A DNA stretch of 64,000 bases, taken from positions 1,184,001 to 1,248,000 of the forward strand of contig CAXXYH010000003.1 in the NCBI GenBank assembly GCA_963677925.2, written 5' to 3'. This document shows, piece by piece, positions 9,727 to 51,282 of the stretch. The DNA comes from Spirochaetia bacterium. GTDB lineage: Bacteria; Spirochaetota; Spirochaetia; UBA9216. The notes under the pieces were generated by a model, which saw nothing but the letters and a program-made list of their open reading frames with translations, had not been told where the DNA came from and made no database searches. Position 1 is the first letter of the stretch, and every line of letters begins with the position of its first letter. Made by a program: the position numbers and the translations under genes.

Positions 9727-9871
9727 TGTTAATCTCCCTCTCCAGTACACCAAATAAGCTGCAATCAACATCATAACGCGCACTGCATTTCTGCATAATA
9801 ATAGAAAACATCCGCTCAGTCTATTGCCGGCATGTCCTGACGGGGAGAAACACCGAAATTATGCATCTATT

Positions 9872-11491: not shown

Positions 11492-11513
11492 TTAAACACC
11501 TGTCCCGATTAAT

Positions 11514-11774
11514 TTAAAAATGCTCTTTGAGAAATTCAAGAACCGTCGCCATAGACACCTTCTCATCACCGCCGTCTACAACCACGGTTATAGTATCATC
11601 TTTTTTCACACCAAGCTTCATGAGTGCAAAAAGTCTATCTGCACCTGCAGTTTTTCCATCAGTCGTTTTTATTGACACCGATGAATCAAGCTGCTTGACA
11701 ACCTTCGCCAGCAAACCTGCCGGCCGGGCATGAATTCCGTTTTCATCTGTTATTATAAATGTTTGTTCTTTCAC
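11514..11774 (-). CDS. ptsH: Phosphocarrier protein HPr (Ser46 position not conserved)
   Basis: GIHARPA His15 motif; ADRLFALM where KSIMGVM/KSLFKL is usual. Confidence 0.95.
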   Translation of the reverse strand: MKEQTFIITDENGIHARPAGLLAKVVKQLDSSVSIKTTDGKTAGADRLFALMKLGVKKDDTITVVVDGGDEKVSMATVLEFLKEHF

Positions 11775-12277
11775 TATCTGTCTCCTGTCTGCTTATCTGA
11801 TTTTTTTACTTTTATCAGATCATCACCTGCTTCAACACTTACTGATTTAACAGACACTACCTCAAGGTAATCTTCAGTATTAACTATCGTAACCGGAGTT
11901 GTAATATCATATCCAAGTTTTTCTATTTTTTTAATATTTATCTTCAGGAGAGGATCCCCAATGTTTACTTTATCTCCTTCTTTTACATAACTTTTAAAAT
12001 GCTTACCCTTTAATTCAACTGTATTCTGTCCAACATGAATTAAAACATCAACGCCATCGTCAGATTTTAATCCAACTGCATGAAAAGTTTCACAAAGGGT
12101 ATCAACAATTCCATTAACAGGTGAAAAAACCTTGTTCCCTGTCGGAATAACTGCTGCTCCCTCACCCATAACCTTTGAAGAAAATGCAGGATCACTAATT
12201 GACTCCAGAGGAACAACCTCGCCCTTAACTGGAGAAGGTATATTTATAATCATTGTATTTTGCATTTCTTTATCCAA
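11774..12277 (-). CDS. crr: PTS glucose-family EIIA
   Basis: DPAFSSKVMGEG, HAVGL, LIHVGQNTVEL. Confidence 0.93.
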   Translation of the reverse strand: MDKEMQNTMIINIPSPVKGEVVPLESISDPAFSSKVMGEGAAVIPTGNKVFSPVNGIVDTLCETFHAVGLKSDDGVDVLIHVGQNTVELKGKHFKSYVKEGDKVNIGDPLLKINIKKIEKLGYDITTPVTIVNTEDYLEVVSVKSVSVEAGDDLIKVKKSDKQTGDR

Positions 12278-12307
12278 AAAACACTCCTATCTTCTGCTGT
12301 ACAATTT

Positions 12308-13162
12308 TCAGGAATTTGAGTTTTTAATTTTTGTATTATTCACCATCCGTTCTATTCCCAGAATCAGGTATAGGCTATCGTCCGAACAAATATTCAAACT
12401 ATATTTATTCTTTACCCAGTCGGATATTTTAATTACAGATTTATAAGCTTCAGGATATTTTTCCCGTAGAATATTCAGAAGTTCATCATCCGAACTTTCA
12501 TTTATACTGCTGCTAATAAGTCTCTGGGCAAAAATTCTTATACTATTCACAAATCGCAAATAACCTACAGAGTCTTCATCCAGTTCAATATTAAAATCAG
12601 CTTTAACCATATCAGTTATTTCACCAATCATTTTAGTCATTTTCATAACATTGGTCATATCAATATCAGTTGAAGCATTTACAAAATGAAGAGCTATAAA
12701 TCCGGCTTCATCAATTTGGAAGTCAAGTCCGGTCTCATGTTTCAAAATATCAACAGCCATAACACCAATCTCAAACTCTTCACGATAATACCTCTTTATA
12801 TCCCACACAAGAGGATTCTGCAGAGTAATACCTTTCTTATAACGTTCAATAGCCATATTTATGTGATCCGACAAGGATACATATATACCATCATTCAGCT
12901 GCTTCCTGAATACATTAACAGCGTATTCAATAATCCGTTCAGTAATAAGAATATATTTCAAAGGTATTTCTGATAAAATTGCCTGAAACTTATCCAGGGA
13001 AATACCATCGGCAATAGTAAATATTTTTTCAACTTTTTCCGGGTCAATCAAATCACCGGCACGCTGCTGAAATCCGAGACCTTTTCCAAGGACAACTACT
13101 TCCCTGTCATTATCGTTCAATGCCACAACAGCATTATTGTTAAGTACCTTTCGTATTTTCAC
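12308..13162 (-). CDS. licT: BglG/LicT family transcriptional antiterminator
   Basis: CAT domain KVLNNN...VLGKGLGF; PRD1 LSDHI and IALHF; PRD2 histidines absent. Confidence 0.95.
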   Translation of the reverse strand: MKIRKVLNNNAVVALNDNDREVVVLGKGLGFQQRAGDLIDPEKVEKIFTIADGISLDKFQAILSEIPLKYILITERIIEYAVNVFRKQLNDGIYVSLSDHINMAIERYKKGITLQNPLVWDIKRYYREEFEIGVMAVDILKHETGLDFQIDEAGFIALHFVNASTDIDMTNVMKMTKMIGEITDMVKADFNIELDEDSVGYLRFVNSIRIFAQRLISSSINESSDDELLNILREKYPEAYKSVIKISDWVKNKYSLNICSDDSLYLILGIERMVNNTKIKNSNS

Positions 13163-13178
13163 CTATTAACCCCAATAT

Positions 13179-13207
13179 GCAGGCCATACAGTTAAAGTAT
13201 GGCCTGC
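13179..13207. terminator. Intergenic stem-loop upstream of licT
   Basis: GCAGGCCATAC-7nt-GTATGGCCTGC; no clear U-tract. Confidence 0.45.
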
Positions 13208-13228
13208 CCAAATAAGTACTTTAAAATT

Positions 13229-14068
13229 CTAATACGCATCACCTAAAATATAATTAACACCCTTTTTAAGTTCACTGATCAGATCTCCTCCTTTACTGGC
13301 ATTGTCCTGATCAATCATAACTCCATACGGAAATAAATCAAGCTCCGATAGAAGTTCCATGACTGAAACATGATCAACAATTCCATCGCCGATACTGCAA
13401 AACGCTTCCTCTTTCTGAACTTCACTATAATTCGAGTTAATATCTTTAAAGTGAACGGCTATTATTCTATCCTTATATTCACGGATAAACTTTACAGGAT
13501 CACCGCCGCCGTACACAGCCCAACCTGTATCAATCTCTGCAGTTACACAGGGCCCGCTTTTTTTCATTATATATTCCATAACACTTATCCTACCATACTC
13601 GGTATCAGCACTGTGGAACTCCATATCATGATTGTGAATACTTAAAGTGATCCCCAATGGATTTAGTTTAAGATTGGCTTCGGTTATATCCAAAGCCAGG
13701 GCTGCAGCCTTATCCAGCTTTAATTCATCAAGCATGGGGCTGAAAATGAAATGCTTAATTCCTGTTTTCTTCGAGACACTCATAAGATCATCTATGCATT
13801 CAACAGCTGTCTTTTCAAGAAAACCGACATGTGCCGATGAAATTTCAAGACCAAGCTTTTTCATTCGCGGCTTCATCTCAAGTATGGTATCTGCCGACCA
13901 GATACAGAACTTCACCCTTCTTGAAGGAATTTCTTCGACTTTTTGCCAGTCGAGCAATACAAAGGGTTCAACCGCACTGAAACCGCAGCGTTTTATATTC
14001 TCCAGAGTTCCCCAGAGATCATCTTTCATTAATAATGCCGGTCCGTATAATCCACAACTTAACTGCAT
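13229..14068 (-). CDS. Sugar phosphate isomerase/epimerase (xylose-isomerase-like TIM barrel)
   Basis: HNHDMEF, EIDTGW, VHFKD, IGDGIVD. Confidence 0.88.
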   Translation of the reverse strand: MQLSCGLYGPALLMKDDLWGTLENIKRCGFSAVEPFVLLDWQKVEEIPSRRVKFCIWSADTILEMKPRMKKLGLEISSAHVGFLEKTAVECIDDLMSVSKKTGIKHFIFSPMLDELKLDKAAALALDITEANLKLNPLGITLSIHNHDMEFHSADTEYGRISVMEYIMKKSGPCVTAEIDTGWAVYGGGDPVKFIREYKDRIIAVHFKDINSNYSEVQKEEAFCSIGDGIVDHVSVMELLSELDLFPYGVMIDQDNASKGGDLISELKKGVNYILGDAY

Positions 14069-14108
14069 TCTGTATTCTCCGGTTTATAATATAACTGCTC
14101 CACCGGCA

Positions 14109-15473
14109 TTAATTACTGCTTTTTACAAGCATTTTGTCATTATAGCCGAAAATGTATGTTGCAGTAAAACTAAGAATCAGTGCAGAAAACATTCCTATAG
14201 CGCCAACACTACCATACATAGCTACAACCGCTGGTAATGTTAAAAGATTTCCAGATAAAAAAGCCGTAGCCAAAGAACCTGCTGTTGCAAGAAGAATCCC
14301 GCTAATTGCATTTGCTACGCATGCTATTACAAACGGTCTTTTATATTTCAAAACAACACCGTATATCGCAGGTTCAGTAACTCCACCCAGAAAAGCAGAA
14401 ATAACTGATGAGCCTGCTATCTGCTTAAGCTCTCGATCTTTGGTTTTAAAAAACACTGCAAGACAGGCTCCGGTTATAGCAAATCCTGTAGCAACTACAA
14501 TTGGCATAAGATTATCATATCCGTAGGCTGCATAATTATTCATCACAATTGGAATTAAACCCCAGTGAAGACCGAAAATGATCATAATCGGCCAGAAAAA
14601 ACCAAGAAGTGCACCTGCAACTGGTGGTGAAAAACCAAGAATTAAATCGATACCCTTTGCAAGATTGGAAGCAAGAATATCCGTAACAGGGCCAATCACT
14701 AAAAATGTCACTGGAAGAATAACAAGCAATGTAATGAAGGGTACCAGTATTCCCTGAATAACCTTCGGTAATACAAGCTTTAAAAGTTTTTCAAACCGGG
14801 ACTGAACATAAACAGCAATAATTACCGGAATTACCGAAGAAGTGTAGCGAATAAGTACAACCGGTATTCCAATGAAGGTTACTTCAGCGCCGCCGGAAGT
14901 AAGTGCAGTAATTGCAGGGTATACAAGGCCGGCTGCAATAGCCATTGAAATGTAGGGATTGGTTTTGAATTTTTTCCCAGCAGTATGCGCTAAAAAGAAT
15001 GGTAGAAAATAAAACACACCATCTGCCGCAGCAAAAAGAATTTTGTATGTAGTGCCCTCATTTGAAAGGATATTCGTAGTTACTAATAAAACAAGAAGAC
15101 CTTTAAGTAAACCTGCTGCCATGAATGCACCCATAAAAGGCATGAATATGCCTGATATGATATCAATTGCCTTTCCAAGAAAACTTTTATGATCGGCCTC
15201 TTCATCATCCCCCCCTAAATTTATAGAGGTTATCTTACCGATCTCTTCATATACATCGCTTACATCAGTACCAATTACTACCTGATACTGACCGCCTGCA
15301 ACAAGAACCTGTATAACTCCGTTAATCTGCTTAAGAGATTCTACGTCAACATTGTCCTTGTCTTTTACTTTAAATCTCAACCTGGTCATACAGTGATTTA
15401 AAGAAATAATATTTTGTTCTTCACCAAGTTCTCTGACAATATCTTTTGCCATTTGATTAAAATTTTTAGCCAC
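14109..15473 (-). CDS. Beta-glucoside PTS EIIBC
   Basis: EIIB HCMTRLRF and QVVIG; EIIC FGLHW and GVTEPAIYGV. Confidence 0.95.
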   Translation of the reverse strand: MAKNFNQMAKDIVRELGEEQNIISLNHCMTRLRFKVKDKDNVDVESLKQINGVIQVLVAGGQYQVVIGTDVSDVYEEIGKITSINLGGDDEEADHKSFLGKAIDIISGIFMPFMGAFMAAGLLKGLLVLLVTTNILSNEGTTYKILFAAADGVFYFLPFFLAHTAGKKFKTNPYISMAIAAGLVYPAITALTSGGAEVTFIGIPVVLIRYTSSVIPVIIAVYVQSRFEKLLKLVLPKVIQGILVPFITLLVILPVTFLVIGPVTDILASNLAKGIDLILGFSPPVAGALLGFFWPIMIIFGLHWGLIPIVMNNYAAYGYDNLMPIVVATGFAITGACLAVFFKTKDRELKQIAGSSVISAFLGGVTEPAIYGVVLKYKRPFVIACVANAISGILLATAGSLATAFLSGNLLTLPAVVAMYGSVGAIGMFSALILSFTATYIFGYNDKMLVKSSN

Positions 15474-15557
15474 AACTACTCCTCCTGTTTTTTTGGTAAT
15501 CAGCTAAATAATAAACTCCATATAAATCGATAAATGCTCCTAAACCTCCTTTTGGAC

Positions 15558-15607
15558 AAAAAAAATAGGCAAGCCGACTTATCCCTGAGGATAAGCAGAC
15601 TTGCCTA
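15558..15607 (-). terminator. LicT-controlled intrinsic terminator overlapping the RAT
   Basis: Minus strand TAGGCAAGTCTGCTTATCC-TCAG-GGATAAGTCGGCTTGCCTA followed by a T-run. Confidence 0.9.
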
Positions 15608-15625
15608 ATTTAATAGTAACAATCT
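15597..15625 (-). promoter_or_regulatory. RAT (ribonucleic antiterminator) site
   Basis: AGATTGTTACTATTAAATTAGGCAAGTCT matches the bgl/lic RAT pattern GGATTGTTACT...CAGGCAAAACC; its 3' half is the 5' arm of the terminator. Confidence 0.9.
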
Positions 15626-15690
15626 CTATTGACTAACAAGCTATCACAACAAAATGATAATGTCTATGCCAAATTATTCGAACACCGGAA

Positions 15691-17133
<1,443 letters not shown>

Positions 17134-17313
17134 TTACAGCAAGCGAGCTCTATTCATGCTCGCTCTGTGCAGAACACAATATAAACGTGAGTGATTTCAA
17201 TTACAATTATCCGTGATGCTTTCAAATAAAATATTTATTATTTTTTAATAAAAATCAGGAATAAATTGCTGCCCTGGACGTTTCCGCTGACTATTCATTC
17301 CTGATATAACAAA

Positions 17314-18204
17314 CTACAGCTTATCAAGATATGCTCTTATTGAATCAATATCATGGTTGACCTGTTGTTTAACTTCTTCAATCGAGTTAAATTTTTTAAC
17401 ACCTCTTATAAATACATGAACCTCAAGACTTATGATCTTTCCATATAAATCACCTGAAAAATCAAGTAAAAATGCTTCAATAGTCAGATAGTCATAATCA
17501 TCTACAGAAGGGCGTTTACCTATATTAGTGAGTCCTTTAACAGCCTTTCCGTCAATATCTGACAGCGTGCCGTAGACACCGTCAGAGGGAAGCTGCTTCC
17601 ATGGCTCAAAACCGATATTTGCAGTCGGCATGCCCACAGTACGCCCGAGAGCTTTTCCATGCATGACTTCACCCATTATAAGATATGGATGGCCAAGCAT
17701 TCTGTTGGCTTGCTCAAGAGAACCTTTGCACAGCACATCAAGTATTCTTTTAGAGGTAAGAGGTTTATTTTCAAACTCAACAGTATCAACTTCTATTAAC
17801 TTAAAACCATACTTTATAGAGCATGATTGAATCAGCTTAATTTGAGGATTCTGCTTCCCTGCAACAATGATTTCTGCCCCGGCAGTTTTACAAAGAAAAT
17901 CATTGATGAAATTTTCAATATCTGTTCCATCAAATTCATATTCTGCTGCAAATGAAATAATCTCATCAAGACCGGAATCTTTGAGTAAGGTATATTTTTC
18001 AAGCTTTGTAGAAAGTATTTTTTGTTTCTCCATAATTTCATCTGGATATTCAAAACAAACTATTGCAGGTTTTAATTTATTACTTTGAGCCAATTCTACA
18101 ACTTTATTTATAACACTCATGTGGCCCTGATGAATTCCATCAAAATCACCAAAAGCAATACATCTATTTTCTGTGCAAATTTCTTTATTGTTCAAAATTC
18201 TCAT
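17314..18204 (-). CDS. RibF-like riboflavin kinase/FAD synthetase paralogue (kinase domain intact, adenylyltransferase domain divergent)
   Basis: GDFDGIHQGH present; GxDFxFG and ISST motifs degenerate (AGKQNPQI, LTSKRI); kinase GRTVGMPTANI, NIGKRPSV, IEAFLLDFSGDLYG. Confidence 0.88.
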   Translation of the reverse strand: MRILNNKEICTENRCIAFGDFDGIHQGHMSVINKVVELAQSNKLKPAIVCFEYPDEIMEKQKILSTKLEKYTLLKDSGLDEIISFAAEYEFDGTDIENFINDFLCKTAGAEIIVAGKQNPQIKLIQSCSIKYGFKLIEVDTVEFENKPLTSKRILDVLCKGSLEQANRMLGHPYLIMGEVMHGKALGRTVGMPTANIGFEPWKQLPSDGVYGTLSDIDGKAVKGLTNIGKRPSVDDYDYLTIEAFLLDFSGDLYGKIISLEVHVFIRGVKKFNSIEEVKQQVNHDIDSIRAYLDKL

Positions 18205-22925: not shown

Positions 22926-23069
22926 ATGGAAATTGAACCTGTAGATCCTTCGACACCACCGCCGGAAAAGCCTGCCGAACAGCCGCTCCCGCCTCCGGAA
23001 GAAACAACCCCGGAAGCAGAGGTTATCGAGGACGATAAACTCGGAGAAAACGTAGATCTGCTTTCATAA
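22926..23069 (+). CDS. 47-aa acidic Pro-rich small protein with YjfB-like C-terminus
   Basis: RBS AAGGAGGA; MEIEPVDPSTPPPEKPAEQPLPPPEETTPEAEVIEDDKLGENVDLLS; below the ORF-track cutoff. Confidence 0.7.
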   Translation: MEIEPVDPSTPPPEKPAEQPLPPPEETTPEAEVIEDDKLGENVDLLS

Positions 23070-23115
23070 TATCAATCAGCATCCTGAGCAGTAATATGAG
23101 TTGGAGATTCTTGAA

Positions 23116-23152
23116 CCACGGATATAGATGGTAGAGATATGTGGCCATACGG
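23116..23152 (+). repeat. 37-bp GxxExxY-associated repeat R1
   Basis: CCACGGATATAGATGGTAGAGATATGTGGCCATACGG; 30/37 identical to the reverse complement of R2. Confidence 0.85.
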
Positions 23153-23280
23153 ATAGACACGGACTGCGTTAAACCACATAGTCTGACTCAAACTAGCAAC
23201 CGTGAAGCGATAGAAGATAGATTAGATTTATAAGACGTCCTTGCCTCCAGAGAGCTTTTTAAGAAAAAAGGAGGCAGGTT

Positions 23281-23696
23281 ATGCTGTTGTATGAAGAATT
23301 ATCAAATAAAATTGTAGGGGCTTTTTTCAGGGTTCATAATGAACTGGGTCCGGGTTTGCTTGAATCATGCTATCATTATTGTTTTGCCTAAAGCAAAACA
23401 ATTAGAAGTTTTCAAAGAAAACTTCACATGCTCTTTACATTGAACTGAAAATCACCGGATTAAATGTTGTCTATAATGCCCCACTTAATGTGCATTACCG
23501 GGGTGAAGTTGTCGGTGAGTTTTTCTCAGACCTTGTGGTTAATAACAATATCATCATTGAAATCAAATCTGTTCAGGCGCTTTCATCTGCGCATGAAGCA
23601 CAGCTAATTAATTATTTACGCATAAGTAAGCTTAAGGTCGGTTATCTTGTTAATTTTCAGGGTTCAAGGGTTGTATTTAAGCGGTTTGTGGTTTGA
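23281..23696 (+). pseudogene. GxxExxY family PD-(D/E)XK protein, copy 1, interrupted by a 50-bp insertion
   Basis: MLLYEELSNKIVGAFFRVHNELGPGLLESCYH, insertion 23377-23426 with in-frame TAA, then HALYIEL...DLVVNNNIIIEIKSV...HEAQLINYL...GYLVNF; removing 50 bp restores the frame. Confidence 0.9.
23377..23426 (+). mobile_element. 50-bp twin-hairpin mini-element E1
   Basis: ATTGTTTTGC-CTAAA-GCAAAACAAT followed by GAAGTTTTC-AAA-GAAAACTTC. Confidence 0.75.
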
Positions 23697-23745
23697 TAAA
23701 CCGAAGTCAAAGATTAATAGTAATCGTGGTATAATCACGGTATAT

Positions 23746-24396
23746 ATGAAACGTTCAATTAAACATAGTAATATTCCGGAACAAGATTCGATGACTTCAA
23801 AGTTTTATGAAGAGAGGGCATCCATGCTAGCACTTGAGTATGCTGAAGCAGCCCCCGGTTTTACTGAAATCTTTAAAATACTCTTACCTGAAAATTCCGC
23901 AATACTCGATGCAGGCTGCGGGTCCGGGCGTGATCTTGCATCCCTTTCTGAATCCGGTTTTAACGTGACAGGGGCTGACTCTTCATCTGAGATGATAACA
24001 GCAGCAGAGAAGATGTATCCGCAACTCAAAGGCAGACTTAAACAGGCAGTATTACCTCTTCTTACCGGCATAACCGGCAGGTTCGACGGGATTCTATGCT
24101 CCGGAGTTCTTCAGCACATCCAAGATAAATATATACATGAGTGCTTCAGCACATTCAGCAGATTTCTACTACCCGGCGGGATATGTCTTGTAAGTTTTCC
24201 CGTCACCTACCCGGACATCCATCCCCATACAAAGCGTGATATAAATGGAAGGTTATTTATTATCCGCACGGGGGAACATTACAAAGAGTTCGCATCCGTA
24301 TACGGATTGATACTCAAAGAGCAGATTTTCAATCAGGATTCACTCGGGCGACCGGGAACCAGCTGGGGGTTGCATGTTTATCAAAAGAAGGGATAG
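23746..24396 (+). CDS. Class I SAM-dependent methyltransferase (start 23746 or 23791)
   Basis: ILDAGCGSGRD, VTGADSS, FDGILCSGVLQH, LLPGG; no DNA-MTase DPPY/PC motif. Confidence 0.88.
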   Translation: MKRSIKHSNIPEQDSMTSKFYEERASMLALEYAEAAPGFTEIFKILLPENSAILDAGCGSGRDLASLSESGFNVTGADSSSEMITAAEKMYPQLKGRLKQAVLPLLTGITGRFDGILCSGVLQHIQDKYIHECFSTFSRFLLPGGICLVSFPVTYPDIHPHTKRDINGRLFIIRTGEHYKEFASVYGLILKEQIFNQDSLGRPGTSWGLHVYQKKG

Positions 24397-24399
24397 AAA

Positions 24400-25500
24400 A
24401 TGAAGTTTGAAGATAGAATCATACTTCCGGAATCAGATCTTTCGATTTCAAAGCTGGTTCAGGCTTTATCCCCTCAATATCTTACAGCAAGCTATAAGCT
24501 GTACTGGCTGCTTGGCATTCTCGACATCATCAAAGACTTTCCATCAGAAAGATCCATAAATATTGAATTTGATGATGTAATTAGAAGAATGATAGCACTC
24601 AGCTGGTACACAATACTTGAATACAGGCTTAATTTCGGAGCATCAGACACACTGGAAAAGGCTGTGCATTATATAGAAAGCAACACTGAACTTAACAGAA
24701 ATAGCTGTAAAAAAGAAATAGTAGAACTTCTTGAAAACTCTGCTGATTCAAAAATAATTGAAATTATACACAGCTTCAGCAAATATGTGCCCTACCGGTT
24801 TCTCACAACCTTCATCCCTAAACTGAACGGCATTCCGGATCATAAAAGAAATTCTGTAATTGAAGAAGCCTCAAAAACCACTCCTGATATTCCTTATGCA
24901 ATTTCAGGTAAAACATGTGTAATGGATCTTAAATGGCTTGAATACCTATATCTGAATAATTCAATAATTAAGGGCTGGGTCCAATACAAACTTGTTTCTT
25001 TTCTTCAGGCTAGAAATCCCAATGTTCCGGCAATAACAGAAAAGTTTGAAGCGCCTCATCAAAGAAACCTTGAAGCAGCACGGAAATACTGGACTGAGTA
25101 TATTTCCTTTAATGATTCAAGAGATATTTTCAGTCATCAGCCAATGAGGGCAACTGAAATAAGCATAGATCATTTTGTACCCTGGAGCTTTGTACTACAT
25201 GACAGAATCTGGAACCTCGCACCCACAAGCCGTGAATTAAACTCCAGTAAAAGCAATCATCTACCTATGTGGGAAAAATATTTCAAGTCATTTGCGGAAC
25301 TGCAGTTCAGGGCATTCAAATGGCATAGTAATAAAACCCCTTCCTCAAAAGTATTGGAAGATTTCATCTTAATAAAACCAGGTATAGCAGGCACTGATAT
25401 AAGCAGAGAATCATTTTTCAGTATTCTGGAAAACACTCTTCAACCGGCTTATCGTATAGCTGCCAATCAAGGTTTTAGTGTTTGGGAAAATAAAGGTTAG
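24400..25500 (+). CDS. HNH endonuclease with N-terminal putative DNA-recognition domain
   Basis: TASYKLYWLLGIL N-terminus; SIDHFVPWSFV...IWNL...LNSSKSNHLP HNH motif. Confidence 0.88.
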   Translation: MKFEDRIILPESDLSISKLVQALSPQYLTASYKLYWLLGILDIIKDFPSERSINIEFDDVIRRMIALSWYTILEYRLNFGASDTLEKAVHYIESNTELNRNSCKKEIVELLENSADSKIIEIIHSFSKYVPYRFLTTFIPKLNGIPDHKRNSVIEEASKTTPDIPYAISGKTCVMDLKWLEYLYLNNSIIKGWVQYKLVSFLQARNPNVPAITEKFEAPHQRNLEAARKYWTEYISFNDSRDIFSHQPMRATEISIDHFVPWSFVLHDRIWNLAPTSRELNSSKSNHLPMWEKYFKSFAELQFRAFKWHSNKTPSSKVLEDFILIKPGIAGTDISRESFFSILENTLQPAYRIAANQGFSVWENKG

Positions 25501-25523
25501 CATTATTAAATATATTTATCTTA

Positions 25524-28268
25524 TCATTTACAGATTTCTTTTAATTTACTAACAAGCTTTTCTCTTTCACCACTTTCATTAGTTTTAAATCTTAGTATAG
25601 GTATACCATATATATCTAAAATTCTATCTTTCATTCTATCGCGCTCAGCCTGCCTAGACCCCTTTTTATGAAACTTATACCCATCCACCTCAATAGCGAG
25701 TATAGATTTTTTGCTAATTTTATTGTAAAGCAAGAAATCAAGATGAGTTGAACTATGCATAGCATAATTTTTTTCTTCACTACTTAAGGGCATAGTATCC
25801 CGAATCAACATATTTAATTGCTGATGGCAAATAACATCACAATTTAAATAGTTATTTTCGTTTATTACATCCAAAATTAATGAATACATTAAATTTTCAG
25901 AATCATATTCTGATATTCTTTTTTTATTTTTCAAGTAACTAATACGTTTTTTAGTATATTGCTGATATAAAAGATCAAAAACTGAATAAATAGTACTTTC
26001 ATTCATGCTTAGGTTATTATATTCAATATAGCCTATCAAATCATTTATATTGCTATCTGAAGACAGTTTGTTTCCTGAAGTAACAACACATAGATTCTTT
26101 TTAGCTCTAGAGATCGCAACATTCAATAAGTATGGATTATCAGAAAAATCCGTTACCTTATCATCTACAGAACTGATTATGATAGAATCTTTTTCTCTAC
26201 CCTGGAATTTATGCACAGTCGCAATATCTATCTTAATATCTGAAAAACTTTGTTTTAATGCAGAGACTTGACTTCTGTAAGGGGCTATTATACCTATATC
26301 TTTATTCGGATAATTATTATACGGTAGAATTTCATGCTTAATAACGTCTATTTGTCGTTGATTCATTAAGCCTCTTTGGTGATTTCCAATTACAGTTTTA
26401 TAAACTGAAACCACATTCTCTTCATCATTATCTTTTGTCATTATTAATAACTTTCCATCATAAAATTTTTGATTACAAAAGTTAATTATTTTAGGATGGC
26501 ATCTGTAATGTTCTCGAAGAAGCGTCTCTGGAATATCTGTTATAATTTCACATACAGACTTCAAGAAGCTATTTTCTATAAAATTATAACCAGAGTTTAT
26601 ATTAAAACTATTAAAAATTGAAGAAAGTTTTGATTTTTCACTTTCAGATATTACATTTGGAAGCTGTTTCAAATCGCCAACAATAACAGCATTTTGTGCA
26701 CAGGATAAAGCTAAAGCACCTGTCGCAATATCAACCTGCGAAGCTTCATCCATTATTAGATAATCATATTCTGCACTTGAAGATAAACTACTCCTCGAAG
26801 AGTAGGTGGTACTTAAAACAATTGGGTATTCGTTAATAAAACTCTTTGGATATTTCCATAGGTCCTCCACAGAAAACCTTTTTCTTTGGGATTTCTTTCC
26901 ATACTTTTCAAATAAAAGAGATCTAAGATATTTCATAGACATCTCTGTTAACTCTTTTAATAGTTTTTTTTCATTCCGCATTTCAAGCGCTTTCTTATAT
27001 TTATAGATACTTAAATTAAGTTCATTAATCTTATTTGTATAGAAAAGGAACTGCAGTAGTCTCGAAATTTTATTTATACCATTCTTATAAAATTTCCAAT
27101 TCGCAATTCCATAAATGTAACAACATCTAATTTTAAAATAAAAAGATGGAGATCTACCTTTTTCTGAATACTTTTCACATTTATGTAGTAATTCAAATAA
27201 AATCTGACTATCAAGAGGTATCTTTACCTTTGTTTCATTTAAAATGGTTCCAGATTCTTTTAAAAATCTTTTAAAATGAGAAAATTCTAAATTTACGTCT
27301 GATAACTTTTGACTATCATAAGCAAGTAACTCATTGAGATGAAAAATTTCATTTAGTTCAGTTGAGCTTTTATGAATTTCCTTAATAAGTTCTCCTCCTC
27401 GAGCCGATTCCAAACCCCAGTCTTTTATCACTGTTGGATATTCACCAGTCTGCCTATTTATGAACTGTGTTTTATTATTTGAATTTCCGAGAGGAGCTAC
27501 AAGAAAATCTAAAAGATATTCAGGAGAAGACAGTTTATCTAAGATATTTTCTATAGCAGAGTTATTATTTGATACAACTTGTACTGTTTTTTCTGAAATT
27601 AGTAGGTTTGCTATTATATTTAAAATCGTTTGTGTTTTTCCAGTACCAGGTGGTCCTTGAATCACACTTATCTGAGAAGATAACGCATTTGTTACTGCTT
27701 TAAATTGACTAGCATTACACCCAAAAGGGAAAATGGGTATATTAAATTTTAGTTTTTTTATTAAAAATTTTTCCGGATTTAAATAAATATTTAATACTTT
27801 GTTTTTTTCTATTGTCTTTATTTTTTCATAATGCTTGGAAAGAATTTTTGTGCCATCTTCAGCTCTAAGACTTACTAAATCTGATATTCTAGTAAGATAA
27901 TTAAGTACACAACTTTGCTTTTCATCATTTAAAATATTTTTAATTATTGAAATATCTTCACCATGGAAATCTACAAAATGCTTATTCTTAAAATAAATAT
28001 GATAATAGGAGAACTGCTTTCCATCGTTAAAGACATACACTGCTTCAATATCTTTAAGTTCCTTACCAAAGTGTTTAAATTGGTAGTTATCTGGATTTAA
28101 AATAATAGGATTCCTAAGCCAATTCACATGTTCTGCTCTATATGTATAAGCTTTACCCTCCTTAAATTTTATTATAAATTTTGATTTTTCTGGAAGATAA
28201 TTACAAAATAAGACTTCTGGTGTAACTATTCTTCCCTTTGCTATAATCATATTTTGTCTTAAATCCAT
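25524..28268 (-). CDS. Upf1/Dna2-like SF1 helicase with C-terminal DUF2726 (Vsr-like) nuclease domain
   Basis: QGPPGTGKT, DEASQ, VGDLKQLP, HYRCHPKII, IIAPYRSQ, TVHKFQGREKD, NVAISRAK; HLDFLL...IEVDG...H...RDRMKD...GIPILRF. Confidence 0.9.
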   Translation of the reverse strand: MDLRQNMIIAKGRIVTPEVLFCNYLPEKSKFIIKFKEGKAYTYRAEHVNWLRNPIILNPDNYQFKHFGKELKDIEAVYVFNDGKQFSYYHIYFKNKHFVDFHGEDISIIKNILNDEKQSCVLNYLTRISDLVSLRAEDGTKILSKHYEKIKTIEKNKVLNIYLNPEKFLIKKLKFNIPIFPFGCNASQFKAVTNALSSQISVIQGPPGTGKTQTILNIIANLLISEKTVQVVSNNNSAIENILDKLSSPEYLLDFLVAPLGNSNNKTQFINRQTGEYPTVIKDWGLESARGGELIKEIHKSSTELNEIFHLNELLAYDSQKLSDVNLEFSHFKRFLKESGTILNETKVKIPLDSQILFELLHKCEKYSEKGRSPSFYFKIRCCYIYGIANWKFYKNGINKISRLLQFLFYTNKINELNLSIYKYKKALEMRNEKKLLKELTEMSMKYLRSLLFEKYGKKSQRKRFSVEDLWKYPKSFINEYPIVLSTTYSSRSSLSSSAEYDYLIMDEASQVDIATGALALSCAQNAVIVGDLKQLPNVISESEKSKLSSIFNSFNINSGYNFIENSFLKSVCEIITDIPETLLREHYRCHPKIINFCNQKFYDGKLLIMTKDNDEENVVSVYKTVIGNHQRGLMNQRQIDVIKHEILPYNNYPNKDIGIIAPYRSQVSALKQSFSDIKIDIATVHKFQGREKDSIIISSVDDKVTDFSDNPYLLNVAISRAKKNLCVVTSGNKLSSDSNINDLIGYIEYNNLSMNESTIYSVFDLLYQQYTKKRISYLKNKKRISEYDSENLMYSLILDVINENNYLNCDVICHQQLNMLIRDTMPLSSEEKNYAMHSSTHLDFLLYNKISKKSILAIEVDGYKFHKKGSRQAERDRMKDRILDIYGIPILRFKTNESGEREKLVSKLKEICK

Positions 28269-28278
28269 CGTACTTCTT

Positions 28279-31200
28279 CTAACCAACACCTAATTTGACA
28301 GAATCTTTCCAAAGCACAGGCGGAAGTGGATGCTCTAAGCGCCAGGTTATGCTCATCGGTTGACTACCGTAATAGGAATCGAAATTTACTAACCCTAGAT
28401 TAATAAACCCCATAGCTCGACCATATTCATCCTCAGATTGCTCTCGAACAAAAAGGACTATCTTTTTCCCATTTTTACTTTGTTCAATATATGATAAGCC
28501 CTTGCCCTTTTCAGGCCTAGCGGAGTTCTGAGTCTGCCAATGAAATAGAACATCATTGATTGCGTAATCATGGTACAGAGTTGTAGGTGAAAATTTCTTC
28601 TCTGTCTTTTGCAAAGTTACAAAAAGCAGCTCGCAATTAAGAGATTTAATTTCAACAGAACCTTCTCGACTGCTTGATTTTTTACTGAAAGAATTTTCAC
28701 CAAAAGCCGCAAGAATTTCATCTCTTGTATACCTTGAATGGAGTTTTATTGCTATTGGAAATCCCAGATCAAGAGGCATTTCATAAACTTCAAGTTTATC
28801 CAGAATATTATCTATTACATCTACACATTCGTTTCGAAGGAGCTCATCTCTTCTTATAGCTGATAGCGATTCCTTTAAATTTCTCATTCCAATAAGTGCT
28901 CCAGGTTTCTGCCAAAAATCATAATGGACCATCATAGCCATTTGATTCTCTTCTTCTGATGATGTATCTCAGTGCCCAGTCATGAAAAAATCTTTGAGAA
29001 AAAGGAGGTATGAAACCGAGGTGCTTTGTAATAACCTTTTAGACAATCCTTTAAATATGGCTTGTTCAATTTCACGATCTAAGAGATCAGAAGAAAGTCC
29101 TGCTTCAATACAAAGCCTATTCCAACCCCCTCCACCATCAATTTTGATTTTATAAATATCTTCTATGGAAACTTGAGGATTGTGTATGAGAAAATTTCGA
29201 AGTGATAATTCAACTGAAGAATGTTGATTATATACCTGTATCCAAGAAATCAGCTTGTTACGATTTACAATCGCATTTTTTATATTCCGAAGAATGATTT
29301 CTTTAGCCTGTTTTTGTAACAATATTGAACATCCCAACGGTAGATGGGGAAAATTGTCTTCAATTTCATCAGTTATTGAATAATGTGATTTCCCAACAAG
29401 TGCCCGGAATTTTTGTGAAAAATCATATTCAGCATGAGCATTCCCAACAAAATCAAGAACGGTTAATGAATCCTTTCCTTGTGATAAACGCAAACCTCTA
29501 CCTAATTGTTGAAGAAATATTGTAAGACTTTCAGTTGGTCGCAAAAACAATACGGTGTCTATCTCTGGAATATCTACTCCTTCATTAAAAATATCTACGA
29601 CACAGAGAATATTTATTTCTCCCTTTGCCAACTGATCACGAAGCCTCACCCTTTCATCAGAATTATTACTTGTTAGTACGGAAGCTCTTATACCCTTCAA
29701 CAAGAATTTTTCAGCCATATATTTTGCATGTTCTTGTGTAACACAAAAGGCTAATGCTTTGATTCGATTAATATCATCAATTAAATCAAACATTGTTCTT
29801 ATTATATGACCAACTCGTTGATCATTAGCCATATAAATCCCCGTTAACTCCGAAGGCAGATAACGTCCCTTTACCCACGCCACATTGGACAAATCCACAG
29901 TATCATCAATTCCGAAATACTGAAAAGGACATAAATACCCATGATTGATAGCTTCTGGTAAACGAAGCTCAGCAGCAATTACATTACAGAAATCTGACCT
30001 TATATCAGTGCCATCATTTCGTTCAGGCGTTGCTGTTAAACCAAGTAAAATTTTGGGCTTAAAGAAATTGATAATATTACGATAGCTATCAGCTGCAATA
30101 TGATGAACCTCATCTACAATTATATAATCATAAAAATCAGGCTCAATTTCTAAGTGATCAATTTTACTACTCAACATTTGTACGGAGACAAATAAATGAC
30201 GATAATGCTCTGGTTTAGAATTTCCGACCCAGAGCTCACCAAATTGATGTGAACGCAGTATCATCTGAAAAGTAAAAAGGGATTGTCTTAGGATTTCCTC
30301 TCTGTGCGCTATAAATAATAATTTGGTTGCTGGATTTTCTTTATATATAGATCTGAAATCGAAAGCTGAAATAACGGTTTTGCCAGTACCAGTGGCAGCA
30401 ACTACCAAATTTCTGTATCTGTTGTGAACTGTTCTTTCAACCAATAATCTCTGTAAAATTTCTTTCTGATAAGCATGTGGTTCAATATCAAAAAAATGCT
30501 GTTGGTTCTCAAAGTCATTATTAGATTTTTTTTCATTTTTAAGCGCCTTCATTAGACGCTCTTTATCATTTATATCTTTTACATTGTAAATCTCAAAATC
30601 GCTTGAAGCCCAATAAGTTTCAAAAGTGGATTTGAATTTTTCAATTATGTGAGGAATTTCCTGGGTTGTTATCTTTAAATTCCATTCTAGCCCACTTGTT
30701 AAGGCTGCATGAGAAAGATTAGACGAACCAATATAACCAGTATGATAACCTGACTTCCTTCGAAATAGATAAGCTTTTGCATGCAAACGCTCTCTTTCTG
30801 TATTATAACTTAAGCGTATTTCTGTATTAGGTAATGCTGATAAAAAATCGACAGCTTTCTGGTCAGTTGCCCCCATATACGAAGTGGTAATAATTTTTAA
30901 TTTTGTTCCTTTACTAGTTGCCTCTTTAAGAGTATCAATAAATATTCGGATTCCTGTCCATTTAATAAAAGATACCAACCACCAAATTTCATCCGAAGAT
31001 AAAATTTCCCGTCTTAGCTCTGATTCTAAAGATAATCCAACATTACTACCAGTAAATAACTCGCTTTGAACTAAACCTGTCTTGGGTGTTATCTTTTCAA
31101 GATATTTTTTAAAATCTGCTGCTATCGGATTTTTAATTTCTAATAAACCTGAAAGTATATCGCCAGTAGTCACTAAAATATTTTCTGATATTTCAACATT

Positions 31201-31449
31201 TTTCAAATAGTCAGAAAGCCATCTTATTATCGAATTTGATAATTCAAGTTGATTCAAGAGTCTGTCATCGTTATTTGGAAATAATTCAAGCGCAGTATGG
31301 ATAACTTTTGATAAAAATCTGGTTAAATATTCAGAGGCTTCCGCACGATCAAGAACTTTTTTTTCAATATAATATTGCTCATTGCTATTATTTAAACGTT
31401 CTTGAAGTAATTCCGTAATTAGCTTTTCATAGATACCTGATTTTAACAA
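28279..31449 (-). pseudogene. PLD nuclease - SF2 helicase - DUF3427 protein split by one in-frame TGA at 28969-28971
   Basis: HAKAY/GSSNLS (PLD), ATGTGKT, DEVHH, TATPER, QQLGRGLR; ORFs 28969..31449 and 28279..28941 share a frame with 9 sense codons between; DUF3427 YHDYAIN...FHWQTQN...LFVRE. Confidence 0.85.
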
Positions 31450-31550
31450 TTTTTGATCCTTTATAAATTACTTCTAAAACATTATCGATTGTTCTATTTT
31501 ATCTTTAAATTCGAGTGGAATACAGAAAAAGATATAATTTTATTATATTT

Positions 31551-31919
31551 TCACACTACAAACCGTTTCCACACAGCCTTTTCACCCATAAAATTAACCA
31601 GATAACCCAGCCTGCAGCCTGAAATATGCAGATAATTAAGCAGTTGTGCTTCATGAATTGAAGCAAGCGATTTCACTGCCTTTATTTCTATTAAAATCTT
31701 ATTTTCAACAACCAAATCTGCATAATACTCACCAACCTGATGCCCCTGTAACTGACATTAAACGGAGCATTGTAACAAACCGATAGCCCCTGGGATTTTA
31801 GTTCAAAGTACAATGCATTATGGTAACAGCTTTCAAGCAGCCCCGGCCCCAGTTCATTGGGCACACTTATACATGCACCCACAATTTTATTTGATAATTC
31901 TTTTATAGAGTTTCTTCAC
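31551..31919 (-). pseudogene. GxxExxY family protein, copy 2, with two frameshifts
   Basis: ELSNKIVGAC...ELGPGLLESCYHNAL; extra A near 31900, missing G near 31745; continues HQVGEYYADLVVENKILIEIKAV...HEAQLLNYL...WKRFVV stop. Confidence 0.88.
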
Positions 31920-31969
31920 TGACAGTTTTCACCGAAAACTGTCAAATCTTTTGTCTTTGACAAAAGATT
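31920..31969 (-). mobile_element. 50-bp twin-hairpin mini-element E2
   Basis: Minus strand AATCTTTTGTC-AAA-GACAAAAGATT followed by TGACAGTTTTC-GGT-GAAAACTGTCA; lies between a GAGG RBS-like site and the GTG of GxxExxY copy 2. Confidence 0.75.
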
Positions 31970-32191
31970 CAGCCTCACTGTTTTTGTTTAAACAGGCAGG
32001 CTCACTTTCTGGGTTCTCAAGGCCGGACCATAGGACCGCTTGCCATGGCCTTGCCTGCATGCAGAGCCGAAGGCAAAGCCTGAAATGAGCTGTACAATTA
32101 AAAAAACAGGAGGAAAGAAAAAAGCAAGGTTAATTCCCAAGCTTCTAATCTCTTAAAATCCGTGAACAGCTTCTCTGTTTTACCCCACAAA

Positions 32192-32228
32192 CCGTGTGAC
32201 CACATATCTCTACCCAATATACCCATGG
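32192..32228 (-). repeat. 37-bp GxxExxY-associated repeat R2
   Basis: Minus strand CCATGGGTATATTGGGTAGAGATATGTGGTCACACGG. Confidence 0.9.
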
Positions 32229-32279
32229 CAAAAATCTCTTCCTAAATCACCTAAGCCCGGACAAAAACACACTTTTCAA

Positions 32280-32341
32280 TGACCCGATTAGATGTTATAA
32301 TCTGGTCACATATTGACCCGTTTAATCCATTATTCAGGTCA
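32280..32341 (+). promoter_or_regulatory. fic promoter with tandem TGACC...GGTCA palindromic boxes
   Basis: TGACCCGATTA-N7-TAATCTGGTCA (contains TGnTATAAT) and TGACCCGTTTA-N6-TATTCAGGTCA. Confidence 0.65.
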
Positions 32342-32355
32342 TGGCGAGGACAAAA

Positions 32356-33474
32356 ATGAAATATATCTGGCAGAACAGCAGCTGGCCTGAATGCACATGG
32401 AATACAGACAGAATTATTGACGCTTTAGTTACAGCCCATAAAAAACAGGGGTACATACTGGGAAAGGGCGATTTACTGAATCTTAAGGACATCAGTTATT
32501 TCATATCCGAAGAAGCCATGACAACCTCAGAAATTGAAGGTGAAAAGCTGGACAGAAACTCTGTCCGCTCTTCAGTTGCCAGAAGACTCGGCCTACCGAC
32601 AGCAGGCCTGCCGGAAGTCAGGCGTGAAACAGACGGATTTGTTCAAATTTTAATTGATGCAACATCCAACTATTCCAGTCCGCTGAATAGAGAAAGACTA
32701 TGGGGATGGCATGCAGCACTTTTTCCGACTGGATACTCGGGAATTCAAAGAATAGAAACCGGGTCATGGCGTAAAAATACTGTTCCCATGCAGGTTGTTT
32801 CAGGATCAATGGGAAAGGAGCGGGTTCACTATGAAGTCCCCGGGGCTGATAAAATTGAGCAGGAAATTGAGACTTTCTTATCCTGGTGGAATAATAAGAA
32901 CAATAAAACAGACGGAATTATGCGAGCTGCTATTGCACATTTCTGGTTTGTTACAATTCACCCATTTGAAGATGGCAACGGCAGAATTGCCCGTGCATTG
33001 ACAGACATGGCCCTGGCTCAGGATGAAAAAACCGGAAAACGGCTTTACAGTTTGTCATCGCGGATAAACAGGGAAAAAACAGACTATTATGACATACTTG
33101 AAAATACACAGAAATGCACAGGCGATATAACAGAGTGGCTTTTCTGGTTTCTTCAGATGTACAGCCGAAGCATTGATGATTCTCTCATAATTATTGAAGC
33201 TTCATACTTCAGAGAATCTTTTTACAGGAACCTCAGCAATCTGATACTCAACGAACGGCAGAAAAAGGTTATTGGAAAACTTCTCGACTCTTATCCTGAA
33301 GAATTTACCGGAGGGATGACCAACAGGAAATATGTAGCAATGACAAAGGCCAGTCCTGAAACGGCTAAAAGAGACTTAAAAAAATTACTGGAAGCTGGAG
33401 TTATAGTAAAGAATGAAGCAAAAGGACGCTCTACAAACTACAGTCTTAATTATCAGTTTCCAGAACAAAGATAG
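32356..33474 (+). CDS. Fic family protein (DUF4172 - Fic - winged helix)
   Basis: YIWQNSSWP, TSEIEGE inhibitory-type motif, HPFEDGNGRIAR, C-terminal TAKRDLKKL...GRSTNY. Confidence 0.95.
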   Translation: MKYIWQNSSWPECTWNTDRIIDALVTAHKKQGYILGKGDLLNLKDISYFISEEAMTTSEIEGEKLDRNSVRSSVARRLGLPTAGLPEVRRETDGFVQILIDATSNYSSPLNRERLWGWHAALFPTGYSGIQRIETGSWRKNTVPMQVVSGSMGKERVHYEVPGADKIEQEIETFLSWWNNKNNKTDGIMRAAIAHFWFVTIHPFEDGNGRIARALTDMALAQDEKTGKRLYSLSSRINREKTDYYDILENTQKCTGDITEWLFWFLQMYSRSIDDSLIIIEASYFRESFYRNLSNLILNERQKKVIGKLLDSYPEEFTGGMTNRKYVAMTKASPETAKRDLKKLLEAGVIVKNEAKGRSTNYSLNYQFPEQR

Positions 33475-33601
33475 AAAAAGTCTCCCCATTCCATTACAAA
33501 TTATATAAAATGCTGTGCAAGCTTGTATATTTTAACCCCAAATTTAAATTTACAAGGTTAGAGACTCTTACCAAATCTTAAAAACTTTGAACTTCACCCA
33601 A

Positions 33602-33638
33602 CCGTGTGACCACATATCTTTACCCAATTTAACCGTGG
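33602..33638 (-). repeat. 37-bp repeat R3
   Basis: Minus strand CCACGGTTAAATTGGGTAAAGATATGTGGTCACACGG; 33/37 identical to R2. Confidence 0.9.
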
Positions 33639-33666
33639 CCAATACCCTCTTCTCAACAATTCAGGC

Positions 33667-33696
33667 AAAAAAAAGAGCACCTTTTCAGGTACTCTT
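33667..33696 (-). terminator. Intrinsic terminator after the duplicated tRNA 3' end
   Basis: AAGAGTACCT-GAAA-AGGTGCTCTT plus T-run. Confidence 0.8.
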
Positions 33697-33706
33697 ACAA
33701 ACGGTA

Positions 33707-33720
33707 TCGGGCTGGCCGGA
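33707..33720 (-). repeat. 14-bp duplicate of the tRNA-Pro 3' end (att-like core)
   Basis: TCGGGCTGGCCGGA, identical to 33798-33811. Confidence 0.8.
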
Positions 33721-33758
33721 AGACGGCGGAGTGCCGGCGCCCGGCGGACCAGTTGACG

Positions 33759-33788
33759 AAAAAAGCCACTCTTTTCAGAGTGGCTTTT
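33759..33788 (-). terminator. tRNA-Pro intrinsic terminator
   Basis: AAAAGCCACTCT-GAAA-AGAGTGGCTTTTTT. Confidence 0.85.
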
Positions 33789-33797
33789 GAGTAGTAG

Positions 33798-33871
33798 TCG
33801 GGCTGGCCGGATTTGAACCGGCGACCCCAAGTCCCCCAGACTTGTACGCTAAACCCCTGCGCTACAGCCCG
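33798..33871 (-). tRNA. tRNA-Pro (GGG)
   Basis: Acceptor CGGGCTG/CAGCCCG-A, anticodon arm CAAGT-CT-GGG-GG-ACTTG, T-arm GCCGG-TTCAAAT-CCGGC; CCA not encoded. Confidence 0.97.
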
Positions 33872-51159: not shown

Positions 51160-51234
51160 GACTTTCCCCTGTTCCTGAGAGATATGTGGTCATTCTGCTT
51201 TCGGTATAATATAACTGAAAAAACGATGATCGGC

Positions 51235-51282
51235 AAGTATGATAAGCTAAGATGAGATATCTCATCTTAGCTTATCATACTT
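51235..51282. repeat. Perfect 48-bp palindrome with no loop
   Basis: AAGTATGATAAGCTAAGATGAGAT|ATCTCATCTTAGCTTATCATACTT. Confidence 0.97.

Follow-up and report, generated by a model that had tools for sequence, protein, structure and literature searches.

Repeats at a spirochaete tRNA-Pro hotspot are arms of a cassette that includes a bulged leader hairpin and a GxxExxY gene

Gene order at the locus

A 64,000-nt stretch of DNA (hereafter, the window) from a Spirochaetia bacterium (assembly GCA_963677925.2, contig CAXXYH010000003.1, positions 1,184,001 to 1,248,000) contains a cluster of defence genes that is bracketed by three related repeats, R1, R2, and R3, and by two genes of the GxxExxY family (TIGR04256/PF13366). 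R1 and GxxExxY copy 1 are followed by methyltransferase and HNH nuclease genes, which face a superfamily 1 (SF1) helicase gene, a PLD-helicase-DUF3427 gene, GxxExxY copy 2, and R2; a fic gene, R3, and tRNA-Pro(GGG) complete the series (Table 1). This order had been given in a preliminary description of the locus, and both the order and the domains agree with the Pfam and tRNA assignments. The description needs correction in three respects: neither GxxExxY gene is intact, an in-frame TGA codon splits the PLD-helicase-DUF3427 gene, and the 37-bp repeat (37-mer) is only part of a unit of about 90 bp. The spirochaete cassette to which the repeats belong consists of a CACGG-box arm, a bulged hairpin, and a GxxExxY gene, and R1, R2, and R3 are each a copy of its upstream arm.

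Table 1. Features of the window around the three repeats, and further sites of the 50-nt insert family
Feature	Position	Strand	Remarks
R1 arm	23101..23163	+	37-mer 23116-23152 plus 5' extension plus one more CACGG box; shortened arm
Module c	23164..23215	+	separate small repeat of about 55 nt; without leader hairpin
GxxExxY copy 1	23281..23696	+	broken by 50-nt insertion; 91% identical to G001 orthologue
50-nt double-hairpin insertion in copy 1	23377..23426 (boundary uncertain by 3 nt)	+	fold z -7.5
S-adenosylmethionine-dependent methyltransferase (cargo)	23746..24396	+	
HNH_4 nuclease (cargo)	24400..25500	+	Pfam
SF1 helicase with DUF2726 (cargo)	25524..28289	-	PADLOC MkoC/MkoA-like matches
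PLD-SF2 helicase-DUF3427, type IV restriction-like (cargo)	28279..31449	-	split by in-frame TGA 28969-28971
GxxExxY copy 2	31551..31919	-	broken: start region disrupted, frameshift near 31740
50-nt double-hairpin insertion between ribosome-binding site and start of copy 2	31920..31969	-	fold z -7.6
Leader hairpin before copy 2, degenerate copy	31997..32100	-	covariance model 23.5 bits, E 0.0056; only match in window
R2 arm	32150..32242	-	complete three-box unit; 37-mer 32192-32228
DUF4172-Fic (cargo)	32341..33474	+	between two same-direction arms (R2, R3)
R3	33597..33653	-	two-box arm without gene; 37-mer 33602-33638; right-hand breakpoint versus G001
att-like scar	33673..33720	-	14-nt duplicate of tRNA 3' end (33707-33720), then terminator-like hairpin
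tRNA-Pro(GGG)	33797..33871	-	in relatives G006 and G007, integrase genes follow
50-nt insert family, other sites	G000:C3:1535646-1535695; G001:C5:109226; G006:C39:26630 and 26772		

The repeats and the CACGG-box arm

The positions and identities first reported for the 37-mers were reproduced (R1/R2 30/37, R2/R3 33/37), and R1/R3 are identical at 29/37 positions. Across 100 dinucleotide-shuffled versions of the window, ungapped matches to R2 peaked at 20-25/37, and beyond R1-R3 no site exceeded 25/37 in the whole 5.04-Mb genome, so that the 37-mer has three copies. When copies are aligned, the 37-mer is seen to lie within the unit of about 90 bp (the arm), which carries three CACGG boxes and of which R1 and R3 are shortened versions. 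A 23-nt core, with two mismatches allowed, was found in 4/10 other genomes of the taxonomic family and in 0/50 outside it. A 19-nt core was found at 47 GTDB loci, 13 of which are spirochaete-titled and hold copies with an upstream CACGG box; each of the remaining 34 has a single match with no such box ahead of it, and these were dropped as chance. The label Spirochaetia on the multi-copy matches, and on named close relatives at the protein level, makes membership in that class most likely for the source organism. A pattern search of metagenomes, with the spacing corrected, gave 2 loci.

A model of the arm, which was trained on many of the copies it then finds, matched four sites in the source genome (G000), namely three in the window and one before another GxxExxY gene, so that 3/4 matches are clustered inside 10.5 kb. 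It also matched two sites in G001, three in G010, four in G007 (all within 11 kb), and 36 in G006, of which 30 are on one 38-kb contig. In G006, tandem runs of up to eight arm units separate HEPN/MNT, Phd/ParE, GNAT, and DUF4160/DUF2442 cassettes, i.e., the arm arrays separate toxin-antitoxin (TA) pairs. Arms occur in both orientations, and inverted doublets are present in G006, G007, and the metagenome locus L167; in G000, 6/7 elements are on the G-rich strand.

Module c, the small repeat next to R1, has other copies in G000 at C3:1266714 and C3:1535811, as well as three near C4:1264453, 2173629, and 2201616. It joins arms at many loci, forms tandem runs in L167, and lies inside one leader hairpin of G008. 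The copy at C3:1266.7k is present in G000 and not in G001. At 51180-51282 of the window, a short stretch that matches the repeat core, and that G001 also has, precedes a perfect 48-nt palindrome; the two genes on either side are divergent.

The leader hairpin and the cassette

GxxExxY genes are present in 10/11 genomes of the taxonomic family, with five in G000. The first box lies at most 400 nt upstream of 25/37 GxxExxY genes, compared with 153/3917 control open reading frames (ORFs; 3.9%), as scored by a pattern that was written after the data had been seen and that gave 13/37 in reverse orientation. The linkage between repeat and GxxExxY gene that had been suggested from the window is also found across genomes. 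In the spirochaete clade, the cassette has the order arm, bulged hairpin, GxxExxY gene, and this layout is conserved over several spirochaete families.

In the leader hairpin, a stem of 18 bp is followed by a single bulged base (3' side), five further pairs, and a tip that varies; the hairpin ends 25-40 nt before the start codon, beside a strong ribosome-binding site. Over 22 hairpin sequences and 23 pairs, 81.9% of cells are paired, and 16/23 pairs have double changes; none of 500 shuffles scored as high, and slid registers gave 31-52% paired, on a structure derived from the same sequences on which it was scored. The structure was read from anchored columns, since misalignment at the variable tip had left RNAalifold with no more than 5 pairs on the raw MAFFT leader alignment. 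In the taxonomic family, a covariance model gave 28 matches (22 training, 6 new), each of them preceding a GxxExxY gene or gene fragment. Among 121 class genomes, it found nine more in six genomes of four other families, all before a GxxExxY start (eight at 25-36 nt, one at 75 nt). Copy 1 of the window has lost the hairpin, and the model has no match at the adjacent module c copy (23164-23215). The leaders are mosaic, e.g., that of the G001 orthologue of copy 1 resembles the copy 2 leader (74% identity).

The position of the hairpin raises the question of whether arm and hairpin are a portable expression leader, that is, a promoter and RNA leader for the GxxExxY gene and the genes downstream, behind which newly landed defence genes are kept. 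The closeness to the start codon and ribosome-binding site, the presence of G-U pairs at some hairpin positions, and the co-orientation of most downstream neighbours with the GxxExxY gene would all fit such a role. However, no sigma-70-like site overlaps any of the three 37-mers, the promoter scan being at chance level (42 sites versus 41.2 expected), and Rfam returned only the tRNA and two chance matches at the level of small nucleolar RNAs, with none for arm or hairpin. Moreover, arms are amplified in tandem, in both orientations, and as inverted pairs, and in the window fic faces R3. An expression leader is therefore considered improbable, and the idea that the repeat is simply a conserved promoter motif, which the preliminary description had set against its own proposal, is contradicted by the same promoter scan and by the tandem runs of G006.

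The bulged base also invites comparison with integrons, in that the repeat or the leader hairpin could be an attC-like site used in trans by the integron integrase of the genome. G000 does have an IntI-like integrase with a cassette array (C3:128k), the G006 array holds typical cassette genes, and the leader hairpin has an extrahelical base. These points are outweighed by others: the 37-mers do not fold beyond shuffles on either strand (z -1.6 to +0.8), the 5' foot of the hairpin has RYYYAAC in 0/22 and AAC in 4/22 sequences (5' arm, gene strand counted), the hairpin lies 5' of the gene start and only before GxxExxY, and the integrase is about 1.08 Mb away. This explanation is hardly credible. 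The chromosomal integron itself (G000:C3:115000-129500) has its IntI-like integrase beside a V-ATPase operon, and its array contains a duplicated gene and one TA pair.

Breakpoints and cargo exchange in related genomes

The source genome was compared with G001, which belongs to the same genus and whose flanks are 88-96% identical. At the window locus, the two genomes are colinear to the end of R1 (23163), share gene 1 (91%) until 2 nt past its stop (23698), and become homologous again at R3 (33600), about 2 kb of other genes in G001 replacing 9.9 kb. In G001, the site and orientation of R1 and R3 are unchanged, and neither R2 nor a second GxxExxY gene is present. The swap of cargo between repeats that had been proposed as a check on the tRNA-Pro locus is thus seen, and it ends at R1/the stop of gene 1 and at R3. 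At C3:2093k, the difference between the genomes starts about 12 nt after the stop, with HigB versus CcdB cargo; at C3:1535k, a 7.75-kb block is missing in G001, from inside the first box (a 9-nt box); and at C4:385k there is an extra arm-gene-MNT/HEPN module, the second copy of which starts at the box. Hence, in 4/4 G000 loci the cargo breaks at an arm or box or just past the stop codon; elsewhere in the aligned flanks, synteny is broken only 2 times in about 34 kb.

Modules of the type gene-cargo-gene occur in tandem in G391 (gene-TA pair-gene), G408, G001, and G007. Flanking repeats are direct at 9/39 GxxExxY genes and inverted at 1/39; the counts of flanking repeats, the tree, and the neighbour counts omit L061, L064, and L079 (other subtype or poor quality), and the flank-repeat count also omits L209 (short flank).

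The preliminary description had taken repeat plus GxxExxY gene for a mobile or recombinogenic unit that marks, captures, or inverts cargo. The part that stands is that the repeat is tied to GxxExxY and marks cargo exchange, as the breaks against G001 indicate. The part that does not is the composite or invertible element, in which the two repeat-plus-gene units would form a pair of ends able to move or invert the cluster of defence genes. Its inward-facing layout does recur: G010 has, between flanks that differ from those of the window, R, gene, methyltransferase-HNH facing PLD-helicase, gene, R, Fic, and R, and G007 has a gene, cargo, and an inverted R. The G010 cargo is only 42% (methyltransferase) and 32% (helicase) identical to that of the window, so this is a recurring architecture rather than one recently moved block. 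The two putative ends are 68% identical (238/352 aligned bases, longest exact match 22 nt), are both broken, and are not sisters in the tree, and R1, gene 1, and R3 persist with other cargo in G001. Nor was an inversion or strand-switch joint found in contigs of three runs, only one of which (X1) has the region, contigs being able to hide rare variants. No recombinase was found nearby, neither as a PF00589 match in the window nor among the 39/49 ORFs scanned with Pfam, and one acting in trans may exist. A composite or invertible element is accordingly regarded as very improbable.

One G001 island absent from G000 (L168, G001:C9:130270-140120, 9.85 kb) has a GxxExxY cassette at its head. A 48-nt direct repeat lies on both sides of the GxxExxY gene, and the cargo comprises type I restriction-modification genes, sce7725/sce7726, and RadC.

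Neighbouring genes

The genes on the two sides of the cassettes differ. Housekeeping neighbours make up 18/29 upstream and 5/31 downstream (Fisher p 0.0004), and defence/TA neighbours, in a broad count, 8/29 upstream and 17/31 downstream (p 0.04), with classes that were assigned by hand, kin genomes that are not independent, and 6/37 downstream and 11/40 upstream ORFs omitted (short, dubious, or duplicate). The downstream defence/TA families include HsdR, HsdM, Cas1, Cas3, HigB, CcdB, and Phd.

At L063 (G008), L066 (G007), and L071 (G004), the GxxExxY cassette stands between a WYL/WCX regulator and a cas1 or Cas3-like gene, or just before a WCX gene.

The GxxExxY genes, their 50-nt inserts, and the predicted fold

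Both window copies exceed the curated cut-off of the hidden Markov model and are members of the GxxExxY family; the C-terminal piece of copy 1 scores 95.9 bits with TIGR04256 (cut-off 35) and 92 bits with PF13366. In the flanking genes, PF13366 and TIGR04256 gave the only matches, and no known transposase was found. Neither copy has an intact reading frame, and intact copies are present elsewhere in G000.

Each copy carries a 50-nt double-hairpin insertion. The insert pattern gave 6 matches in 3/11 genomes of the taxonomic family, each inside a GxxExxY gene or at its start, whereas among 300 other genomes of the phylum there were 2 matches, neither of them near GxxExxY. The inserts occupy two fixed sites in non-sister paralogues. 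The insert of copy 1 is at the same codon as that in a G006 gene that is only 67% identical, with conserved stems and different loops, whereas the 91%-identical G001 orthologue of copy 1 is without it. A second insert type occurs at a third site in three GxxExxY genes of G006 and G009. Judged from these sequences, the simplest reading is that the inserts probably arose by independent site-specific insertion; gene conversion would be an alternative route to the same distribution.

Translational bypass of the insert, by a hop between matched codons, was also considered and was dropped because the G006 insert at the same site has no matching landing codon. Other double hairpins of 40-70 nt, with a pattern unlike that of the GxxExxY inserts, lie between genes, several of them beside tRNA genes, rRNA genes, or gene ends (G000:C3:219080, C4:400293, 724992, 1260729, 1782570, and 2346721, and others).

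For an intact GxxExxY member of the clade, the predicted structure (predicted local distance difference test, pLDDT, 96) is a minimal PD-(D/E)XK nuclease fold; a single-sequence fold was unusable (pLDDT 45). The best fold match is Cas4 SSO0001 (Foldseek E 6e-5), and the VIA comparison with it (Z 8.7, root-mean-square deviation 3.6, 99 aligned) is tied with restriction nucleases, while PDB sequences searched with the GxxExxY profile gave none at E up to 1. Across 81 sequences, D67 and K79 are invariant and E77 is nearly so. Fold and residues suggest that the protein may be an active nuclease, and a shared fold does not establish function.

The tRNA-Pro hotspot and other parts of the window

The interval is a tRNA-Pro hotspot, i.e., it combines a tRNA gene, a duplicated tRNA 3' end, atypical composition (GC content of 27-35% at 25-32 kb versus about 43%), and variable cargo. 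Behind the same tRNA-Pro, an integrase is present in G007 and as a fragment in G006, and is absent in G000. As had been claimed, no integrase or transposase was detected in the window: no PF00589 recombinase was found, nor any transposase or integrase family among the 39/49 ORFs of at least 100 aa scanned with Pfam. The contig of run X1 is identical to 23283-33827, with no differences; X1 may be the source sample, and the match is therefore not independent. As the contig carries the same base at the TGA codon of the PLD-helicase-DUF3427 gene, this codon is likely a true nonsense change.

Just before R1 (22926-23069) lies a 47-codon ORF that is rich in proline and acidic residues, has a strong ribosome-binding site, and is also found in G001; in the G007 hotspot, an ORF whose start resembles it is found about 4 kb ahead of the GxxExxY gene. 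Further to the left (9853-17319), a 7.5-kb cluster of phosphotransferase system and beta-glucosidase genes is not in G001.

Discussion

The explanation that is preferred here, with a probability of roughly 45%, is that modules are inserted at arms by a process that is initiated by the nuclease and completed by host recombination, and that this process has decayed in the tRNA-Pro hotspot of the window. The GxxExxY nuclease would cut at the arm or the hairpin, either of which may be its substrate, and would in this way start the exchange; host recombination would then add new modules, each headed by an arm, next to arms already present. The outcome would be direct-repeat arrays with cargo on one side, and cargo may in this sense be captured. 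The window would represent a decayed case, with two facing cassettes of different origin, a gene-less arm, and both genes disabled.

Several observations weigh against this explanation. Among the loci compared, none provided a clean empty/filled pair with a target duplication, and 30/39 GxxExxY genes, both window copies included, are without a repeat downstream. Two islands that only G001 has begin ahead of the box, by about 70 nt on C9 and by about 0.9 kb on C6. At C3:2114k, an arm without a gene is the same in G001 and the cargo does not differ, and the block missing at C3:1535k may be a deletion in G001, where the neighbouring sequence is full of deletions. Strictly counted, defence/TA neighbours do not differ significantly between the two sides (14/31 downstream versus 8/29 upstream, p 0.19). 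The scoring of the hairpin on its own source sequences, the hand-assigned neighbour classes, and the non-independence of kin count on the same side, and the predicted PD-(D/E)XK fold would be expected to cut DNA and not to be a strand-transfer enzyme.

Many of the same data could be explained if cassettes and arms were passive anchors. As selfish or neutral sequences they would pile up in permissive hotspots, where RecA recombination would swap, stack, and delete cargo and the nuclease would have no role in cargo movement. This main rival has a substantial minority chance of being correct. It accommodates the tRNA hotspot, which has an att-like scar and low GC content and where G006 and G007 carry integrases behind this tRNA; the inheritance of R1 and R3 at unchanged sites; the mosaic leaders; and the survival of the G006 arm arrays on a contig whose GxxExxY copies are all broken. 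It also agrees with published hotspots without mobile elements that turn over by homologous recombination (PMC5635113). By itself, it leaves unexplained why a strongly covarying hairpin is found only before GxxExxY, why the neighbours are polarised to one side, and why one break falls inside a 9-nt box.

The preferred explanation, insertion started by the nuclease and finished by the host, can be extended to an integrase-free form of gene capture. In this form, a tiny Cas4-like PD-(D/E)XK nuclease would recognise its own bulged single-strand hairpin plus CACGG boxes and drive the stepwise insertion of defence/TA modules there, yielding integron-like arrays, while a 50-nt double-hairpin parasite would repeatedly switch the nuclease gene off at fixed sites. 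The whole of this scheme is unlikely to be correct.

Among known systems, REP/REPIN-RAYT (PMC3116915) is alike in that a small gene for a DNA-cutting enzyme is linked to short non-coding repeats, which are found apart from the gene as well, in tandem runs, and in some cases as inverted doublets. It differs in that the enzyme here has a predicted PD-(D/E)XK fold and is not a tyrosine transposase (RAYT genes elsewhere in the genome were outside the search), the arm appears not to be palindromic, the copies are clustered in one region and not scattered, the flanks repeat directly more often than inverted, and the cargo lies behind the gene. In integron cassette arrays with their attC sites (PMC5027507), repeats likewise separate one- or two-gene TA cassettes, and there is a long imperfect hairpin with an extrahelical base and a variable tip. 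In contrast, the hairpin here has no RYYYAAC at its foot, stands before the nuclease gene and not at cassette ends, and has no adjacent integrase, and the array repeat is unstructured. Hotspots without mobile elements (PMC5635113, PMC13617665) resemble the locus in the tRNA-adjacent interval, the rapid turnover of defence and TA genes, and the frequent pseudogenes, whereas the breakpoints here lie on the cassette of repeat, hairpin, and nuclease gene and not on flanking core genes.

IS91/ISCR and ISEcp1 elements, whose gene capture is one-ended, also have one conserved and one variable end, with captured genes on one side. They encode HUH or DDE transposases, neither of which is found here. 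By analogy, the cassette may be viewed as a mix of REPIN-RAYT and integron array within a hotspot of the published kind, and it would belong to neither of the first two.

The function of PF13366/TIGR04256 is listed as 'Unknown' in PMC3424549, and a GxxExxY domain next to a CRISPR-type reverse transcriptase is mentioned in passing in 10.1101/2021.01.26.428298. No published description of the GxxExxY cassette, its genomic role, the repeat, or the hairpin was found in a search that was thin on subscription papers and bioRxiv supplements.

GxxExxY is a large and widely transferred family, and the locus provides candidate substrates for it, namely the three-box arm and the covarying bulged hairpin that occurs only before the gene, as well as a measurable outcome, i.e., cargo exchange at the box or stop codon. 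The family is therefore directly testable. The genes downstream of the cassettes make up a ready list of candidate defence genes and, if the nuclease does drive the exchange, defence and TA arrays would be built here without an integrase or transposase.

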